NCBI GenBank assembly: GCA_041611095.1
Contig: JBFINP010000003.1
Coordinates: forward strand, 2,800-66,799
Direction: 5' to 3'
Length of the DNA stretch: 64,000 bases
Source of the DNA: Acidimicrobiia bacterium
GTDB lineage: Bacteria; Actinomycetota; Acidimicrobiia; Spongiisociales; UBA5794
Shown piece by piece: positions 32,022 to 37,950 of the stretch. The position numbers and the translations under genes are program-made. Each line of letters starts with the position of its first letter. Within the stretch, counting starts at the first letter, position 1. The notes under the pieces are model-generated. The model had not been told where the DNA came from, made no database searches, and was given only the letters and a program-made list of their open reading frames with translations.

Positions 32022-32060
32022 GATGAACCTCCGGTGATACGTGGATGTCGACAAGGTACA

Positions 32061-32080
32061 ACTTGAAGTTGACTTCAAGT
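32061..32080. promoter_or_regulatory. SoxR-box palindrome ACTTGAAGT-TG-ACTTCAAGT inside a 19-bp-spacer promoter for the SDR/QueA-like operon
   Basis: Perfect 9-bp arms. On the minus strand, -35 TTGACT (32083-32078), an exactly 19-nt spacer (32077-32059) and -10 TACCTT (32058-32053) give the over-long spacer typical of MerR/SoxR-activated promoters. On the plus strand, TTGAAG (32063-32068), a 17-nt spacer and GATAAT (32086-32091) sit 7 nt before the soxR ATG, which suggests a leaderless mRNA. Confidence 0.75.
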
Positions 32081-32098
32081 CAAGAGATAATCCTCGAC

Positions 32099-32554
32099 AT
32101 GGAGGACGTCCTCACCATCAGCGAGGTAGCCACGCGAAGCGGGTTCTCCGCCTCGGCCCTGCGCTTCTACGAGAAGGAAGGCCTCATCACGGCAACCAGG
32201 ACCTCCGGGGGCCAGCGCCGCTTCCACCGCCACGAGCTGCGCCGCCTCGCTTTCATCGCCGCCGCCCGGCACGTCGGATTGACCTTGGACGAGATAGGCG
32301 AAGCGCTGGACCTGCTCCCGTCAGGTCGCACGCCGACGAAAGCCGACTGGTCCAAGATCACGCGCTCGTGGCGGAAGCGGCTCGACGAGGAGATCGCTGC
32401 GCTGGAGAGTCTGCGGGACGGGCTCGACAGCTGCATCGGCTGCGGCTGCCTGACACTGCAACGCTGCCGGCTGAGCAACCCGGCCGACATCGCCGCAACG
32501 AGGGGCTCAGGAGCCGTCTACCTCCCGAAACCGCTCCATCCCGACGCCGACTGA
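32099..32554 (+). CDS. soxR: Redox-sensitive MerR-family transcriptional activator SoxR
   Basis: Trimmed to ATG 32099. The HTH region is LTISEVATRSGFSASALRFYEKEGLI, and the [2Fe-2S] motif CIGCGCLTLQRCRLSNPAD is diagnostic of SoxR. Confidence 0.9.
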   Translation: MEDVLTISEVATRSGFSASALRFYEKEGLITATRTSGGQRRFHRHELRRLAFIAAARHVGLTLDEIGEALDLLPSGRTPTKADWSKITRSWRKRLDEEIAALESLRDGLDSCIGCGCLTLQRCRLSNPADIAATRGSGAVYLPKPLHPDAD

Positions 32555-32676
32555 CCCAGCTGGTCCATCCGGGCACTCACGGACCACGACGTCGAACCCG
32601 GTGCTGCCCCAGACCGAGGGGGAGCTCGGCACGAGGTGAGCCGCGTGGTTCGTCGACTGCTCCACGAGGTCCGTCG

Positions 32677-33447
32677 TCACTCCGGCGTGACGTACGCCGC
32701 CGAGATGCCGCCGTCGACGAGGAACTCGGTGCCGGTGACGTAGGAGGACTCGTCGGATGCGAGGAACAACGCCGCTTCCGCCATCTCCTCGGCGAGCCCG
32801 AAGCGTCCCATCGGGAGGTGCACCAACCGCCGCTGTCGCTTGGCGTCGGTGTCGAGGAACTTCATCAGGAGCTCGGTCTGGAGCGGACCGGGGCACAGCG
32901 CGTTCACCCTGATGCCCTCGCGGGCATGCACCACGGCCAGCTCCCGGGTCATCGAGAGCACCGCACCTTTCGATGCCGTGTAAGCGAGTTGAGGAGTGGC
33001 CGCACCCATGCGGGCCACGAACGACGCGGTGTTGATGATCGACCCGCCTCCCGCCTCACGGATCGCCGCTATGCCGAACTTGCACCCGAGGAACACGCCC
33101 TTGACGTTGACGGCGAAGGTCCTGTCCCACGTCTCCAAGTCCGTGCCTACCGCATCGGAGTCGTCCGACAGCATGATCCCGGCGTTGTTGAAGAGCACAT
33201 GGAGTGCGCCGTACCTACTCGTTGCCGCTTCGACCATGCGCTCACAGTCCTCCGGGGTGGAAACGTCGGCGCGGACGGCGAGAGCCCAGTCGGCACCGAT
33301 CTCGTCCCCAACCTGCTCCACGGCGGCCTCGTCGATATCGACCAGCACCACGGCGGCCCCCTCCTCGGCGAAGCGAAGCGCCGACGCTTTCCCGATCCCG
33401 CTTCCTGCTCCCGTGATCAGGGCGACCTTGCCGTCGAGTCGACCCAT
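32677..33447 (-). CDS. Short-chain dehydrogenase/reductase (3-oxoacyl-ACP reductase/glucose dehydrogenase-like)
   Basis: GKVALITGAGSGIGKA, NNAG and YTASKGAV are classical SDR motifs. Confidence 0.9.
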   Translation of the reverse strand: MGRLDGKVALITGAGSGIGKASALRFAEEGAAVVLVDIDEAAVEQVGDEIGADWALAVRADVSTPEDCERMVEAATSRYGALHVLFNNAGIMLSDDSDAVGTDLETWDRTFAVNVKGVFLGCKFGIAAIREAGGGSIINTASFVARMGAATPQLAYTASKGAVLSMTRELAVVHAREGIRVNALCPGPLQTELLMKFLDTDAKRQRRLVHLPMGRFGLAEEMAEAALFLASDESSYVTGTEFLVDGGISAAYVTPE

Positions 33448-33456
33448 CGTGTCCTC

Positions 33457-34821
33457 CTAGATCCGCTCGAAGTAGCGGCGGCGTTCCCAGTCGGTCACTG
33501 CGGCGTCGAAAGCATCGGCCTCGGTCGCGAAGAAGTGCGAGTAGTGCCGGTGCACGTCGCCGCCCAGGAACGATTCGGCGAACTCGCTGGCTCGGAATCG
33601 ATCGGTCGCGTCTCGCAGCGTCGTCGGCAGAGCGTCGAGATGGTCGGCCTCGTACATGTCGCCTACGAAAGGCTCGGGCATCGTCAGCCCCTCCTCGATC
33701 CCTTCTGCTCCCGCTGTAAGCAGCGCGGCATACGCCAGGTACGGGTTGCAGTCGGCGCCGGGCACCCGACACTCCACCCGCAGGCTCTCACGCTCGCCGA
33801 CGACCCTCAGCGCCGCGGTGCGGTTGTCCCGGCTCCACGCCAGCCGGGTCGGCGCCCACGAGCCGTGCTCGAAGCGTTTGTACGAGTTGATGGTGGGCGC
33901 CAGCAGGACCGTGATCTCCGGGAGTCGGCGCAACAGCCCGGCCACGAACCCTCCGAACTCGGCCGACGCCTCAGCACCGTCGGCGAACGCATTTTGCCCC
34001 TCCCGCCACAGGCTCAAGTGCATGTGGCAGCTCGAGCCCGCCTGGCCGGCGAAGGGTTTCGCCATGAACGTGGCGCTGATCCCGGCGGCATCGGCGATCT
34101 CCTTCATCGCCTCCTTCATCACGGTATGGCGGTCGGCCATCTGGTCGACGGCCGTGTATTTGATGTTCATCTCGTGCTGACCGCGTCCCCATTCCCCCTT
34201 CGAGTTCTCCACCGGAATGCCGGATCGAGCGAGATGGCGGCGAACTGCCCGGTTGTAGAACTCCTCGCGAGTGCCCTGCAGGATGTTGTAGTCCTCCAAA
34301 TACCACCCGAGGGGCGTGAGGTCGGCGTACCCTTGCTCGGCTGCCTGGCGATAGGAGTCGGTGAACAGGTAGTACTCGAGCTCCGACGCCGCCATCGCCG
34401 TGAGCCCGGATCCGGCGAGCCTCTCCACGGCACGCCGCAGCACCGTCCGCGGCGCCGGCGCCACATCGCCATGCCCCGTGGTGTGGAGATCGCACAGCAC
34501 CAGGGCCGTGGCCTCGAGCCACGTGGCCCGCCGCATCGTGGCCAGGTCGGGGACCATGTGGAAATCGCCGTAGCCGAGCTGCCAGTTGGCGAACTCGTAG
34601 CCGGGAACGGGCTCCATGTCGATGTCGGTGGTCAACAAGTAGTCGCAGCCATGGGTACCGGCGGAGGCAACGTGCTCGACGAAGAAGCTCGCATCGAAGC
34701 GCTTGCCCATGAGCCGTCCGTAGTGGTCGGGGAAAGCGACGATGACGGTGTCGATCTCGTCCGCCCCGGCGGCGCGCCGCAGGGCGTCGAGGCTCAGGTG
34801 AGGTTCGGTCTCGGCGGCCAT
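33457..34821 (-). CDS. Glutamine synthetase-family ligase (GlnA-like, gamma-glutamyl-amine synthetase type)
   Basis: Only the last 454 codons of the 648-aa ORF look real. ATG 34821 sits behind GAGGAG. Motifs NSKGEWGRGQHEMN, AGSSCHMHLSLW, NSYKRF and RDNRTAALRV are GS catalytic motifs. Confidence 0.9.
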   Translation of the reverse strand: MAAETEPHLSLDALRRAAGADEIDTVIVAFPDHYGRLMGKRFDASFFVEHVASAGTHGCDYLLTTDIDMEPVPGYEFANWQLGYGDFHMVPDLATMRRATWLEATALVLCDLHTTGHGDVAPAPRTVLRRAVERLAGSGLTAMAASELEYYLFTDSYRQAAEQGYADLTPLGWYLEDYNILQGTREEFYNRAVRRHLARSGIPVENSKGEWGRGQHEMNIKYTAVDQMADRHTVMKEAMKEIADAAGISATFMAKPFAGQAGSSCHMHLSLWREGQNAFADGAEASAEFGGFVAGLLRRLPEITVLLAPTINSYKRFEHGSWAPTRLAWSRDNRTAALRVVGERESLRVECRVPGADCNPYLAYAALLTAGAEGIEEGLTMPEPFVGDMYEADHLDALPTTLRDATDRFRASEFAESFLGGDVHRHYSHFFATEADAFDAAVTDWERRRYFERI

Positions 34822-34977
34822 GGCGCTCCTCGGGTCGGGGGGCAAGATACCGGCCGGGCGTTGAGGATGCCTTTCACCGGCGGCGGTGATGCTCGGCCCA
34901 GGACCGGGCCTTCGGACTCTTGGCAGGCCGAGGCGGCTGCGGTACAACGTCTTCACGACGCCACAAGGGAGGGTGTC

Positions 34978-35295
34978 ATGGCGGCGCAACCATCGCGACC
35001 AACGGGCAAGGAACCGCTTCGGGATGCGGCTCTGGAGCGAGCCGAGGAAGAGGCCGAGGGCGTAGCGGCCTTCGGCACGCCCCCGTCGATCGCCGGGGAA
35101 GTGGCCGAGCGCGAAGAGGCCCAGGGCGTTGAGGTGTTCGAGGACCCGGACGGCGTGATCCCGCGCGTCGAGCTGAGGAACGGCGCTCCAGGGGAGGAGA
35201 GTCTCGATCCGGACCGGCTCGGGCTCGACGATACGCTCGGGGAGGACGCCTACGACGCCGGCGTGCCGGAGTATCCCGAGGACCTGGAGCCCTAG
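34978..35295 (+). CDS. Small acidic hypothetical protein (105 aa)
   Basis: This is the tail of the spurious 1084-aa ORF. ATG 34978 sits behind GGGAGGG (34968-34974). It has high GC3 and is very Glu/Asp-rich (…EEEAEGVAAFGTPP…PEYPEDLEP). No recognisable family. Confidence 0.5.
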   Translation: MAAQPSRPTGKEPLRDAALERAEEEAEGVAAFGTPPSIAGEVAEREEAQGVEVFEDPDGVIPRVELRNGAPGEESLDPDRLGLDDTLGEDAYDAGVPEYPEDLEP

Positions 35296-35299
35296 CCGG

Positions 35300-36043
35300 C
35301 TACTCCACCTTCCACTGGCCCGGACAGCCCTCGCACTCCTGCCACCCCTGGATCGGTGGGGGACCGCTGAGTCGCACCTCGCCGTCGACCCGCCGGAGCG
35401 CACCGAGGAGCGTGCCCTGGGCCGTCGTCACGACCACGAGCTTCGTTCCTCGCTCGCCCATGCGATCGACCAGAGGCTGCAGCAGACCGTTCGGCCGGAC
35501 CGTGGTCGGCCCCGGCTCCATCACGTCGACCACGATGGCTACGTCGTCCTCGTCCCACGCCCCGTTACGGAGCCGTCCGACGACCGTATCGCCGCAGTCG
35601 ACGACCATGCACTCGTCCCAGGCGGCCGCGAAGGTCCGCCGACGGACCTCACCGATCGACTCGTCAGGGGTGCAGGTGGGCACGTCATCGCGGGCGGCGT
35701 CCATCACTCGCAGAACCGGCGCCGCCGTCCCTTCCATCGGGAGCCCCGCCGCCTTCCAGTCGGCGATGCCGAGGATGTAGTCGTAGACCTCTTCGAACCC
35801 AAGTGCTTCGAGCCGGCACGCGGCTCGCGGAGACATGTCTCACAAGCCGTCGTGTCAATAGACGACGACGGGTTTGTCCCGTCGTAGCTGCTCCGTCGTC
35901 GCCGCATCGAGCGTCTTCAGCGGGATGTTGACGGCACCGGGGATGTGACTCTCGGCGTACTCCCGTGCCGGCAGTACGTCCACGACGGTGGCGCCCTCGT
36001 CGATGAGCACCTCGAGGGTCGAGCGATCGATGGCGGTGACCAC
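35300..36043 (-). CDS. Rhodanese domain + CBS-pair protein, single reading frame interrupted only by two in-frame TGA codons (35855-35857, 35840-35842): candidate selenoprotein (U-x4-U) or very recent pseudogene
   Basis: GTG 36043 sits behind GAAGGAGGA (36049-36057). Translation: MVTAIDRSTLEVLIDEGATVVDVLPAREYAESHIPGAVNIPL...DKPVVVY-TGA-HDGL-TGA-DMSPRAACRLEALGFEEVYDY..ADWKAAGLP, then two CBS motifs. The ORF track splits this into 35855..36745 and 35300..35836. There is no frameshift between the halves. Confidence 0.55.
35810..35826 (-). other. SECIS-like hairpin 2, downstream of TGA#2
   Basis: The mRNA GAGCCG-CGUGC-CGGCUC forms 6 perfect bp with a 5-nt G/U-containing loop beginning 20 nt after UGA#2. 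It shares 5 nt with the 3' arm of hairpin 1, so the two folds are mutually exclusive. Confidence 0.35.
35822..35848 (-). other. SECIS-like hairpin 1, downstream of TGA#1 and containing TGA#2 in its 5' arm
   Basis: The mRNA GGCUUGUGAGA-CAUG-UCUC(C)GCGAGCC forms 11 bp (2 G-U pairs, 1 bulged C). The apical loop begins 18 nt after UGA#1. Confidence 0.35.
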
Positions 36044-36054
36044 GGCGTCCTCCT

Positions 36055-36525
36055 TCAGTAGGTCGATGGGAACCGGGTGCGGAAGTCGATGACGTTGACC
36101 CAGTCGGGCCGGACGGTGATGCGCGCCATACCGCGCATCGTGGCGTTCGCACGGTCGCGAAACCGGGCTCCGTCGGCCGGGCCCAGGTAGCGGAGCGCCG
36201 CATCGGCGTACTCGGGAACGGCGCCCTCGACGATCGTCACGTGCGCGTCGCCGCGCACGCCGAGGATCGCGTATGGAGCAGTCTCGGAGTCGATGGTGAC
36301 CGCAGCCCGCGGGTTGGTCTGGAGCGCCTCGACCTTGGGTGATGCCCCGGCGGCGCCGAACACCAGCTCGGTGCCGTTCCACGCAAACCACATGGGGCTG
36401 ACGCGAGGCGTGCCGTCGAGGGCGATGTACCCCAGGCGGGCCGGGATCGCCGAGCTCAGCAGCTCGACCGCGACGGGGTGCCGGAGCAGGGCGAGATCTC
36501 CCTGAGGCAGCGTGTCGAGCGTCAT
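36055..36525 (-). CDS. Pyridoxamine 5'-phosphate oxidase (PPOX)-family, probably F420/FMN-dependent, protein
   Basis: GYIALDGTPRVSPMWFAWNGTELVFGAAGASPKVEALQTNPRAAVTID is the PPOX split-barrel pattern. The start overlaps the upstream stop by 4 nt. Confidence 0.85.
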   Translation of the reverse strand: MTLDTLPQGDLALLRHPVAVELLSSAIPARLGYIALDGTPRVSPMWFAWNGTELVFGAAGASPKVEALQTNPRAAVTIDSETAPYAILGVRGDAHVTIVEGAVPEYADAALRYLGPADGARFRDRANATMRGMARITVRPDWVNVIDFRTRFPSTY

Positions 36526-36830
36526 CGGTCGGCCCCCGTGAGTGCGGCCGTGATCTGCTCGACGGTCGGTGAGCCGGCCGGACCTTCCGGCGTCTGGTAG
36601 ATGCGGCAGGAGAGCCCGACGGGTGCGCCGGGGTCGGCGAACGGGTCGACGCCGTCGAGGAGGATCGTCGGTGAGCCGTGGAAGGCGATGGCCTCTGCCA
36701 TCTCCGGCGTTGCCACGAGCTCGACCCGTACGTGGGCCGGGACACCGGTGGCTTCGACGGCGCGCTCGACTCGTTCGATCGTGGTGAGCCAGTTGGGGCA
36801 GTCGTTGAAGTGTTGCAGCGTGATCTGCAT
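36522..36830 (-). CDS. Small thioredoxin-fold protein (Thioredoxin_3-like) with CPNW in place of CxxC
   Basis: Trimmed to ATG 36830 behind GGAGG. MQITLQHFNDCPNW...VRVELV...AIAFHGSPTILLDG follows the beta-alpha-beta...cis-Pro layout of small redox-active Trx-like proteins. Confidence 0.7.
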   Translation of the reverse strand: MQITLQHFNDCPNWLTTIERVERAVEATGVPAHVRVELVATPEMAEAIAFHGSPTILLDGVDPFADPGAPVGLSCRIYQTPEGPAGSPTVEQITAALTGADR

Positions 36831-36841
36831 CCCGACCTCCG

Positions 36842-37231
36842 TCATGTGGTGGTGCGAGCTCGGGCGCTGTACTCGGAGAGTGCAGCCGTGAGCTGGTCGA
36901 GGCGTGCCGCGTTGATCGAGTAGTAGCTCCACCGGCCGCGCTTCTCCCGGTCGATGACGCCTGCGTCGAGCAGCGCTTTGAGGTGGTAGCTGACCGTCGA
37001 CTGCGCCAGCGGCAGGTGGCGTTCCACGTCCACCACGCACACGGGCTCGCCGGCGGAGTCGATCAGATGGACGATCGCCATCCGGTAGGGGTCTCCCAGC
37101 GCCCCGAACGCCTCGGCGAGGTCCTCGGCGCGGAGCGCATCGATCGGTTGGGCATCGAGCGCCACACAGCACGGCACCTCCGTGTCGCACTCACAGACGA
37201 CTCGAGCCAGCTTGGACGAAGATTGCATCAT
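36842..37231 (-). CDS. ArsR/SmtB-family metal(loid)-responsive repressor with Cys-rich N-terminus
   Basis: Trimmed to ATG 37231. The N-terminus CECDTEVPCC, then FGALGDPYRMAIVHLI...PVCVVDV...LAQSTVSYHLKAL, which is the ArsR wHTH. Confidence 0.9.
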   Translation of the reverse strand: MMQSSSKLARVVCECDTEVPCCVALDAQPIDALRAEDLAEAFGALGDPYRMAIVHLIDSAGEPVCVVDVERHLPLAQSTVSYHLKALLDAGVIDREKRGRWSYYSINAARLDQLTAALSEYSARARTTT

Positions 37232-37296: not shown

Positions 37297-37950
37297 ATGA
37301 GCAAGAGCGCCGACGCACCACTCGCCACAGGTGACAACGATGCCCTGGCCGGGATCCGGTCGCTCTCGGTGAACGAGGAGGCAGCCCGGGTTCGCTCGGC
37401 GGGGTTCCGGCTCCTCCTCGAGACCGGGTCTCGCGTGGAGCCGGCCGATCTAGCCGACGCCGTGGGGATCGACGTAGCGCGGGTGCGACAAGCGATCGCC
37501 AAGGCCACCGGCAGGGTCGAGACCGACGGTGACGGGCGCCTGCTCGGGATCGCCGGGCTCACGATCACGCCGACGTCACACGAGATCACCATCGGCGATC
37601 GGCGGCGCTGGACCTGGTGTGCCCTGGATGCGGTCGGAATCCTCGGGGCGCTCGAGAGCACCGGCACGATCCGCTCCACCGACCCCAGGACGGGAGAGGA
37701 GGTCCGTATCGAGTTCGTCTGCGGACGAGCCGAGGGCGACGCCACGATGTTCCTTCTTGGTGGGTCAGGCGGCGGGAACGTGCGTCAGAACTGGTGCCCC
37801 AACGTCAACTTCTTTGCGACGCGCGAGAGTGCCCAGGCCTGGGTCGCCGACCGGGATCTCAACGGGGACGTTGTCGCAGTGGCGGACATCGCCGACGAGG
37901 CCGCGACGATGTGGCGGCCGGTCGTCGATCCTTCGAGCGACCAGCCGTAG
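37297..37950 (+). CDS. merB: Organomercurial (alkylmercury) lyase MerB-family protein
   Basis: RRWTWCALDAVGILGAL matches the MerB Cys96/Asp99 block (WCALD). NWCPNVNFFATRESAQAW matches the Cys159 block (C..V.FFA....A..W). Confidence 0.85.
   Translation: MSKSADAPLATGDNDALAGIRSLSVNEEAARVRSAGFRLLLETGSRVEPADLADAVGIDVARVRQAIAKATGRVETDGDGRLLGIAGLTITPTSHEITIGDRRRWTWCALDAVGILGALESTGTIRSTDPRTGEEVRIEFVCGRAEGDATMFLLGGSGGGNVRQNWCPNVNFFATRESAQAWVADRDLNGDVVAVADIADEAATMWRPVVDPSSDQP

Follow-up and report, generated by a model that had tools for sequence, protein, structure and literature searches.

A predicted rhodanese-CBS selenoprotein of Acidimicrobiia with two in-frame TGA codons and two downstream hairpins

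Why should a rhodanese-CBS gene be interrupted by exactly two in-frame stop codons, both TGA, at the two Cys columns of its active-site loop? The gene in question lies at 35300-36043 on the minus strand of a 64 kb stretch of DNA from an Acidimicrobiia bacterium (the window, whose positions are used throughout). When it is read together with its orthologs, the answer, which this comparison strongly supports, is that it is very probably one intact gene for a 247-residue selenoprotein, with both TGAs decoded as selenocysteine (Sec). Rhodanese-CBS is a widespread actinobacterial selenoprotein family, often found beside mercury-resistance genes and routinely split in annotation. Judged from sequence, what appears to be new is a rhodanese-family selenoprotein with CBS architecture, in a new lineage, with apparent tandem hairpins for UGAs 15 nucleotides (nt) apart.

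One reading frame and two TGA columns

The features of the gene itself are as follows.

35300..36043, minus strand: complete rhodanese-CBS selenoprotein gene (predicted), 247 codons plus TAG, GTG start, two in-frame TGA codons
36049..36054, minus strand: AGGAGG ribosome-binding site, 5 nt 5' of the GTG start (spacer ACGCC), as read in the sequence
35855..35857, minus strand: first TGA, residue 63, predicted Sec; TGA in 48/81 loci, TGC/TGT in 33/81
35840..35842, minus strand: second TGA, residue 68, loop position +5, predicted Sec; TGA in 80/81 loci, TGT in one (L042)

Read directly, the minus strand contains one frame from the GTG at 36043-36041 to the TAG at 35302-35300, and the only stops within it are the TGAs at 35857-35855 and 35842-35840; the frame, start and ribosome-binding site described in the original prediction are thus all present. 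The TGA stop of an upstream PNPOx-like gene (36057-36055, context TAC TGA) falls just before the AGGAGG. Around the loop the product reads ...DKPVVVY-stop-HDGL-stop-DMSPRAACRLEALGF..., or Y-U-HDGL-U-DMS when the TGA codons are written as Sec, and the column of the first TGA is the canonical catalytic-Cys position of the rhodanese loop.

A protein search of 5.8 billion sequences returned 447 homologs. About 115 of the best 120 are proteins of 164-196 residues, and all those inspected begin MSPRAAC, at a Met two codons past the second TGA; gene callers have therefore cut the same gene at the same place in many assemblies. Three of these best 120 are full-length, reading VVVYCHDGLCDMSPRAAC. The homologs P0002-P0004 have Cys at both columns, as do nearly all members of a set of 52 distant full-length homologs (40-49% identity), most of which, with few exceptions, read C-x4-C-D-[LM]-S. 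Matches came from 175 GTDB species in all, and metagenomic homologs number in the hundreds. The ortholog set comprised 80 loci (numbered with L) fetched from different GTDB species plus the window, 81 loci in which both codons were read directly. TGA stands at both columns in 48 of these (hereafter di-Sec genes), TGC or TGT at the first column with TGA at the second in 32, and TGC/TGT (Cys/Cys) in one, L042, which encodes P0004. The expectation that the stops occupy Cys columns is therefore borne out, with Cys in the homologs and TGA, TGC or TGT in the orthologs, and the proposal of two Sec columns holds in part: TGA/TGA recurs, but only the second column is near-universal, the first being mainly confined to one Acidimicrobiia clade. 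The 81 loci are colinear with the window gene, and no further stops or frameshifts were found in them.

The codon alignment indicates that the whole stretch is translated. Synonymous sites are saturated across the gene, with Ala, Gly, Pro, Val and Arg columns using 3-6 codons each, and the amino acids flanking both TGAs are conserved despite this. The HDGL between the TGAs is kept as amino acids while its Gly codon (GGN) uses all four third bases; the tetrapeptide is therefore translated, and termination at the first TGA followed by re-initiation is ruled out.

In the neighbor-joining tree, second-column Sec occurs in Acidimicrobiia, Thermoleophilia, Rubrobacter, Pseudonocardia, Micromonospora and Actinomycetospora, and Sec at this column appears to be the older state. 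Cultured strains that carry the gene are Pseudonocardia autotrophica NBRC 12743, Rubrobacter marinus SCSIO 52915, Actinomycetospora lemnae DW7H6 and Micromonospora coerulea JCM 3175. The di-Sec genes fall mainly in one Acidimicrobiia clade with internal Cys reversions (L011, L025, L037 and L055), a topology suggesting that Sec at the catalytic column arose in the Acidimicrobiia clade with a C-terminal CxxC tail and reverted to Cys at least four times. Paralogous copies occur, two or three per assembly (L002/L015/L030, L007 and L023, L006 and L024, L032 and L045, L037 and L046, L063 and L072). The first three of these are from a single metagenome-assembled genome, JAZFTN01 BS2bin.34, in which three di-Sec copies amount to six Sec codons from the rhodanese-CBS family.

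Hairpins downstream of the TGA codons

If the TGAs are read as Sec, a selenocysteine insertion sequence (SECIS) would be expected in the mRNA just downstream. We examined an RNA alignment of 72 nt around the loop, in which columns 10-12 are the first TGA codon and columns 25-27 the second, and two conserved hairpins were found.

35809..35827, minus strand: hairpin 2, the main SECIS candidate, CGAGCCG-CGUGC-CGGCUCG, 7-bp stem, alignment columns 40-58
35829..35843, minus strand: hairpin 1, G-C closing pair, bulged U (the U of the second TGA), GAGA/UCUC stem, CAUG loop

Hairpin 2 begins 12 nt past the second TGA and 27 nt past the first, its loop CGUGC contains GU, and in the window RNA it folds at -11.0 kcal/mol (z-score -2.9). 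The codons for R-A-A-C-R-L that run over it (CGA/CGG GCC GCG TGC/TGT CGG CTC) are near-invariant, with synonymous sites that are effectively frozen: GCC in 78/78, GCG in 78/78, CGG in 78/78 and CTC in 77/78. Its cells are paired in 100% of cases in di-Sec genes and in 98.6% in other genes. All single changes keep the pairing (A-U to G-U 16 times, G-C to G-U once), and L028 and L047, placed apart in the tree, both have a compensatory change of C-G to U-A (GCT...CAG), at the cost of an Arg-to-Gln substitution. The hairpin that had been predicted here, GAGCCG-CGUGC-CGGCUC, is accordingly present in the window RNA, extends to the 7-bp stem at 35827-35809, and is conserved, with frozen synonymous sites and one compensatory change. 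The Cys/Cys ortholog L042 retains hairpin 2 intact (L042:638-709), which suggests a fossil SECIS and a recent Sec-to-Cys change. By these measures hairpin 2 is a SECIS candidate with the position and form of the bacterial element, and it occurs wherever the second TGA occurs.

Beside hairpin 2, a UCGAA...UUCGA inverted repeat (columns 56-60 with 70-74, window 35793-35811) overlaps its 3' arm. The repeat pairs in 83-100% of cases in di-Sec genes versus 48-97% in others, and di-Sec genes favor GAA at E79 and GGA at G82 (GGA in 35/46 versus 8/32). This possible third hairpin may be a mere reflection of amino-acid conservation. The Cys/Cys copy of Nonomuraea gerenzanensis (L089, NZ_LT559118.1, an 11.85-Mb record filed as 'plasmid I' and almost unannotated in the plasmid collection) still has a CGGGCCG...CGGCUCG stem, though its loop is CGCAC.

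Hairpin 1 begins 11 nt past the first TGA and contains the second TGA within its stem (pairs G24-C38, G26-C37, A27-U36, G28-C35 and A29-U34, with U25 bulged). Its cells are paired in 93% of cases in di-Sec genes versus 57% in other genes. The Leu codon ends in G (NTG, supplying G24) in 45/48 di-Sec genes versus 10/32 Leu codons in the others, and the Ser codon is TCT in 39/48 versus 3/33. G24 persists in 94% and U36 in 81-83% of di-Sec genes while other synonymous sites in the same clade, such as the GGN two codons upstream, are saturated. Three of the four Cys revertants have lost G24 and/or U36. Folding restricted to the part of the RNA left free by a ribosome standing on the first TGA (columns 24-72) gave both hairpins in 32/48 di-Sec genes, and hairpin 1 in 1/33 of the non-di-Sec genes. 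We conclude from these patterns that di-Sec genes do possess a feature of their own in hairpin 1, which may act as a further binding site for SelB or as a spacer that, by collapsing, moves hairpin 2 within reach.

A longer hairpin around the second TGA is the minimum-free-energy fold of a 58-nt stretch in the window (-23.9 kcal/mol, z-score -2.5). It was rejected as a conserved element, as its lower stem is not kept at its variable positions across di-Sec genes (pair 21-43 in 52%, pair 22-42 in 74%); this lower stem would also lie inside the ribosome while the first TGA is in the A site. The hairpin originally proposed for the first TGA therefore exists in the window RNA, but only its apical core (35843-35829) is conserved, and the overlap originally described between the two hairpins came from the lower stem that is not kept; in their conserved forms they are adjacent.

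A mechanism can be envisaged in which, with the first TGA in the A site, hairpins 1 and 2 would lie next to each other where the mRNA enters the ribosome. Hairpin 1 would then either recruit SelB itself or fold away 15 nt so that hairpin 2 reaches working distance. Five codons on, hairpin 1 would have been unwound, and hairpin 2 could serve the second TGA at standard spacing. The arrangement resembles the fdhF-type SECIS of E. coli, a stem-loop within the coding sequence ~11 nt past the UGA with G/U in the apical loop. It differs in having two tandem elements 15 nt apart, with the second UGA inside the first stem; in addition, hairpin 2 lacks a bulged U, and the loop of hairpin 1 lacks GU. Hairpin 1, with its closing G-C, 5'-side bulged U, 4 bp and tetraloop, resembles the minimal fdhF element.

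Several observations weigh against this RNA evidence, and most of them favor a rival account in which hairpin 2 is the only SECIS and serves both TGAs, at distances of 12 and 27 nt, and the pattern at hairpin 1 reflects ancestry or codon context. Hairpin 2 is the sole strong and invariant element, and its GU loop is like that of a hairpin in a neighboring candidate selenoprotein gene for a membrane protein (described below). Hairpin 1 taken alone is weak (-2.2 kcal/mol, z-score -0.7), and its CAUG loop lacks the GU of both these hairpins. In 8/48 di-Sec genes the Ser codon is TCC, which places an A-C mismatch in hairpin 1, and in L062 it is AGT. The contrast between di-Sec and other genes is partly phylogenetic, because most di-Sec genes form one clade, and selenoproteins with UxxU and UxU motifs have already been catalogued. 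Hairpin 2 has limits of its own: its covariation consists of one pair in two sequences and shuffle controls are marginal, true covariation being thin because the element hardly varies, and an Rfam scan of the window at gathering thresholds gave no match, bacterial SECIS elements being poorly represented in Rfam. A single SECIS is quite possible, if short of probable. It leaves unexplained why G24 and U36 are kept amid saturated sites, why three of four independent Cys revertants lost one or both, and why hairpin 1 lies 11 nt from the first TGA, mirroring the 12 nt between hairpin 2 and the second. The spacing of UGA and SECIS in E. coli is tight, which also counts against service at 27 nt.

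Probable Sec use in the lineage and other readings of the TGAs

Decoding of both TGAs as Sec calls for the Sec machinery, and here too there is a point to be set against it: neither the 64-kb window nor ~700 kb of related loci yielded tRNA-Sec, selA, selB or selD when searched with ARAGORN for tRNA-Sec (window plus 60 loci) and by tblastn with E. coli SelA, SelB and SelD (window plus 80 loci). The single tblastn match, to the first 61 residues of SelB (the GTPase region), lies at a contig end in L038, just after tRNA-Thr/Met genes, and is probably an ordinary elongation-factor gene.

A second candidate selenoprotein, a multi-pass membrane protein whose gene contains an in-frame TGA, adjoins the rhodanese-CBS gene in 12 loci (L001, L002, L003, L004, L010, L016, L021, L038, L056, L058, L059 and L061; for example L059:4072-4924). 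Its gene is usually ~0.1-1 kb upstream of the rhodanese-CBS gene, and there is none in the window. The protein reads ...FFSPCSFPLL...GFGYLLAGFG-TGA-TGPLLAGLA..., and the TGA is followed by a frozen GCC GGT CTG GC that forms a hairpin with the loop GGUCU. Pfam and NCBIfam gave no match to this TGA-containing protein, which from its motifs may be CcdA/DsbD-like. Elsewhere in the class Acidimicrobiia, selA, selB, selC and selD are reported from all 84 complete genomes of Actinomarina (Actinomarinales; 2026 preprint). Rubrobacter xylanophilus has been catalogued with 5 selenoproteins, and a Rubrobacter marinus plasmid carries a Cys/Sec form of the rhodanese-CBS gene. The membrane-protein candidate, the Actinomarina sel genes and the Rubrobacter selenoproteins together give indirect support for Sec use at the level of the lineage.

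Three further readings do without Sec. The first supposes two products, a 62-residue rhodanese N-fragment ending at the first TGA and a CBS protein re-initiated at ATG 35836. This ATG, two codons past the second TGA, is near-invariant and is the start used by gene callers, and RefSeq has the copy of Pseudonocardia autotrophica as two coding sequences (CDS). We nevertheless consider two products very unlikely: the rhodanese fold would be broken at the very loop that carries the active site, the HDGL between the stops is evidently translated, the Met is the loop residue of D-[ML]-S in Cys homologs, the ATG has no ribosome-binding site (the sequence there is GGCTTGTGAGAC), and full-length Cys forms exist.

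A second reading, read-through without Sec, would have UGA stand for Trp, Gly or Cys through reassignment or suppression, or have the stops bypassed by near-cognate decoding. The Sec genes not found in the window and related loci would be in keeping with this, but TGA is the dominant ordinary stop, ending 30/40 confident genes in the window, and the codon is therefore not reassigned genome-wide. A crude scan of the window gave no other convincing in-frame TGA with coding-like flanks, the recoded sites align only with Cys, a conserved stem-loop stands at SECIS distance, and related lineages are documented Sec users. Read-through of this kind is accordingly hard to sustain. Finally, although gene callers and RefSeq split the locus and the Sec machinery was not seen in the window, the idea of a decaying pseudogene, once a C-x4-C rhodanese gene and then hit by nonsense mutation twice independently, is scarcely credible, since of 81 loci 48 have TGA at both of these columns and 80 at the second, with no other stops or frameshifts, with protein conserved on both sides of and between the TGAs and with a conserved hairpin downstream; on this the original prediction, which had argued against decay, was right.

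The protein, its relatives and its neighbors

The domains of the predicted protein are listed below.

35745..36016, minus strand: rhodanese homology domain, PF00581, residues 10-99, containing the U-HDGL-U active-site loop
35382..35701, minus strand: CBS pair, residues ~115-220; sub-threshold in Pfam, supported by the AlphaFold2 (AF2) fold
35312..35335, minus strand: C-terminal CxxCPGxW tail, CEGCPGQW, residues 237-244

With Cys written at both TGAs, the rhodanese domain originally proposed is matched by Pfam at 6.5e-18 (65.5 bits versus a cut-off of 22.2). The accompanying CBS pair scores 22.1 bits in the window protein, below the cut-off of 24, while PF00571 is precomputed for many orthologs. 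An AF2 model of a 60%-identical Cys homolog has a confident two-repeat alpha/beta fold over residues ~110-230 (predicted local distance difference test, pLDDT, 83-94). It also shows the rhodanese fold, while the linker is predicted poorly and the C-terminal tail is disordered (tail pLDDT ~40); the orientation of the domains to one another is not fixed by the model (predicted template modeling score 0.51). The first column follows the VVVY strand, and its counterparts in the alignment are the first loop Cys of BH2092 and the Cys of 1yt8 domain 4. The CxxCPGxW tail is found in 54/81 loci, all in the HDGL clade that includes the di-Sec forms; neither the WDxL Cys/Sec clade nor the distant Cys/Cys homologs have it. 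A contact between this tail and the loop is a conjecture, and the low confidence with which AF2 places the tail counts against it.

Among relatives of solved structure the nearest is BH2092 of Bacillus halodurans (PDB 3nhv/3o3w, where it is called only 'BH2092 protein'), a Cys-type C-x4-C rhodanese with the loop YCWGPACNGATKAA. Rhodaneses of this type and the Cys/Cys rhodanese-CBS proteins of Actinomycetota share the fold and loop of the window protein, in the form Y-C-x4-C-x-x-[ST]-x-x-AA, but have Cys for Sec and no SECIS function. The distant Cys/Cys homologs also share the rhodanese-CBS architecture and have no CxxCPGxW tail.

A loop with two Sec residues is not itself without precedent, contrary to the original prediction. 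A review of prokaryotic selenoproteins lists five rhodanese forms, of which form 5, TsoB (NF045694; WP_332113227.1), is a rhodanese/DsbD fusion with the motif UxxxxU and 2 Sec, attributed to Haft & Tolstoy 2025 (PMC13188914, 2026), and a UxU form from Olavius symbionts was reported in 2007, a precedent for a second Sec evolving beside the first. Compared by motif alone, TsoB has a rhodanese domain, two Sec residues and the same loop spacing as U-HDGL-U. The TsoB system also has an ArsR/SmtB-type regulator, TsoR, whose model the window ArsR matches weakly (27.4 bits versus 115). The window protein differs in its score against the TsoB model (35.9 bits versus a cut-off of 805, through the rhodanese part only), in being a soluble protein of 247 residues with a CBS pair and CxxC tail and no fused DsbD-like domain, and in coming from another phylum (Actinomycetota).

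Forms 1-4 have the motifs UxxS, UxxG, CxU (NF041203) and UxxG (PMC13188914), and, like the UxU form, have Sec in or near the rhodanese active-site loop. In these terms the first column of the window protein is U-H-D-G (UxxG) and the second U-D-M-S (UxxS), and form 1 (UxxS, Geobacter; WP_010941598.1) may carry Sec at the same +5 position. The rhodanese_LYCAU (seleno)protein family NF041203 is distinct, as the window protein scores 32.7 bits versus a cut-off of 115 and has a U/C-x4-U loop with no CxU. None of the catalogued rhodanese forms is listed with a CBS domain, unlike the window protein. No curated NCBIfam model reaches its cut-off for the latter, the 2026 review lists no CBS-containing selenoprotein family (PMC13188914), and a search of one literature collection found no paper that joins selenoprotein, rhodanese and 'CBS domain'.

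The setting of the gene bears on its function. Its neighbors in the window are these.

36055..36525, minus strand: PNPOx-like gene, directly upstream (PF01243, 40.2 bits)
36522..36830, minus strand: DF family (seleno)protein, Cys form (NF049942, 69.8 bits versus a cut-off of 70; MQITLQHFNDCPNW...GLSCRIY)
36842..37231, minus strand: ArsR/SmtB metalloregulator with Cys-rich N-terminus CECDTEVPCC (NF033788, 79.5 bits versus 55; Pfam HTH_5/HTH_20)
37297..37950, plus strand: divergent alkylmercury lyase MerB (PF03243, 81.3 bits)

The ArsR, DF-family, PNPOx-like and selenoprotein genes are thus on one strand with MerB divergent, and the ArsR/MerB setting noted in the original prediction is confirmed by these family matches. 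Within flanks of up to 6 kb on each side of the 81 loci (tblastn), the commonest neighbor is the DF family (seleno)protein (49/81), followed by a MerR-family regulator (39/81), a MerB homolog (22/81) and a Cys-rich ArsR (15/81); the PNPOx-like gene is an occasional neighbor (7/81). The DF-family protein has ~100 residues and is usually encoded directly upstream of the rhodanese-CBS gene, and its CPNW Cys codon encodes Cys in every readable copy (27 loci plus the window). On the mobilizable plasmid pPA12743CP of Pseudonocardia autotrophica NBRC 12743 the genes form a tight operon of MerR, MerB, DF family and rhodanese(C-WDGL-TGA)/CBS, in which the MerR, MerB and DF-family stops and starts overlap. 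RefSeq splits this rhodanese-CBS copy (L087:6001-6669) at its TGA into two CDS, WP_158092367.1 ('rhodanese-like domain-containing protein', 66 aa) and WP_085916618.1 ('CBS domain-containing protein', 154 aa).

Other genes in the window lie further off. A MerR-family regulator (32027-32552, plus strand), ~2.7 kb downstream of the selenoprotein gene, has a CIGCGCLTLQRC motif that may be SoxR-like. A 1084-aa open reading frame (32041-35295, plus strand) is antisense to a glutamine-synthetase-like gene (33457 to ~34800, minus strand) and an SDR gene; its translation is rich in Arg, Pro and Gly, which suggests a spurious high-GC frame.

Because the operons have MerR/ArsR regulators and often MerB, we suggest, with low confidence, that the most likely role of the protein is to handle Hg(II) or an organometal that MerB releases as its product. 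With its near-universal Sec at +5 and not at the canonical catalytic position, the loop points to selenenylsulfide/diselenide chemistry or soft-metal chelation rather than classical persulfide transfer. A selenol/selenol or thiol/selenol pair might form a reversible Se-Se or S-Se bond, or chelate a soft metal; such a center could exchange with the protein's own CxxC tail and with the DF-family partner, and the CBS pair could provide ligand control. The Sao system (with the MerB-like SaoL) and the MerT-type and UxxU metal-binding selenoproteins likewise link Sec proteins, MerB-type lyases and metal-responsive regulators (PMC13188914). They belong to other families and phyla; in the present case MerB itself is of the usual Cys type, and it is the rhodanese-CBS fusion that is the predicted selenoprotein.

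At its fullest, our proposal is of a natural tandem-SECIS system, with each UGA followed by its own hairpin at 11-12 nt, and of a diselenol rhodanese-CBS protein that, in concert with MerB and the DF-family partner, would capture or process Hg(II) or organometals. We advance it tentatively, as something possible but doubtful. If the tandem arrangement is true, hairpin 1 would have come and gone together with the first UGA in dozens of lineages, and if the protein is a diselenol partner of MerB, it would represent a selenium-based branch of mercury resistance in Acidimicrobiia.

Recognizing the family would fix many annotations and add two Sec codons per copy, as the gene is split by gene callers in the sampled metagenome-assembled genomes and by RefSeq in cultured Pseudonocardia autotrophica. 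The series of Cys/Cys, Cys/Sec and Sec/Sec forms with matched mRNA changes makes the insertion of two Sec residues five codons apart testable, and the family also informs how a new SECIS-like element arises within a coding sequence. That the gene recurs in an operon with MerB, MerR/ArsR and the DF family suggests that selenium takes part in the handling of mercury or organometals by abundant marine and sediment Actinomycetota.

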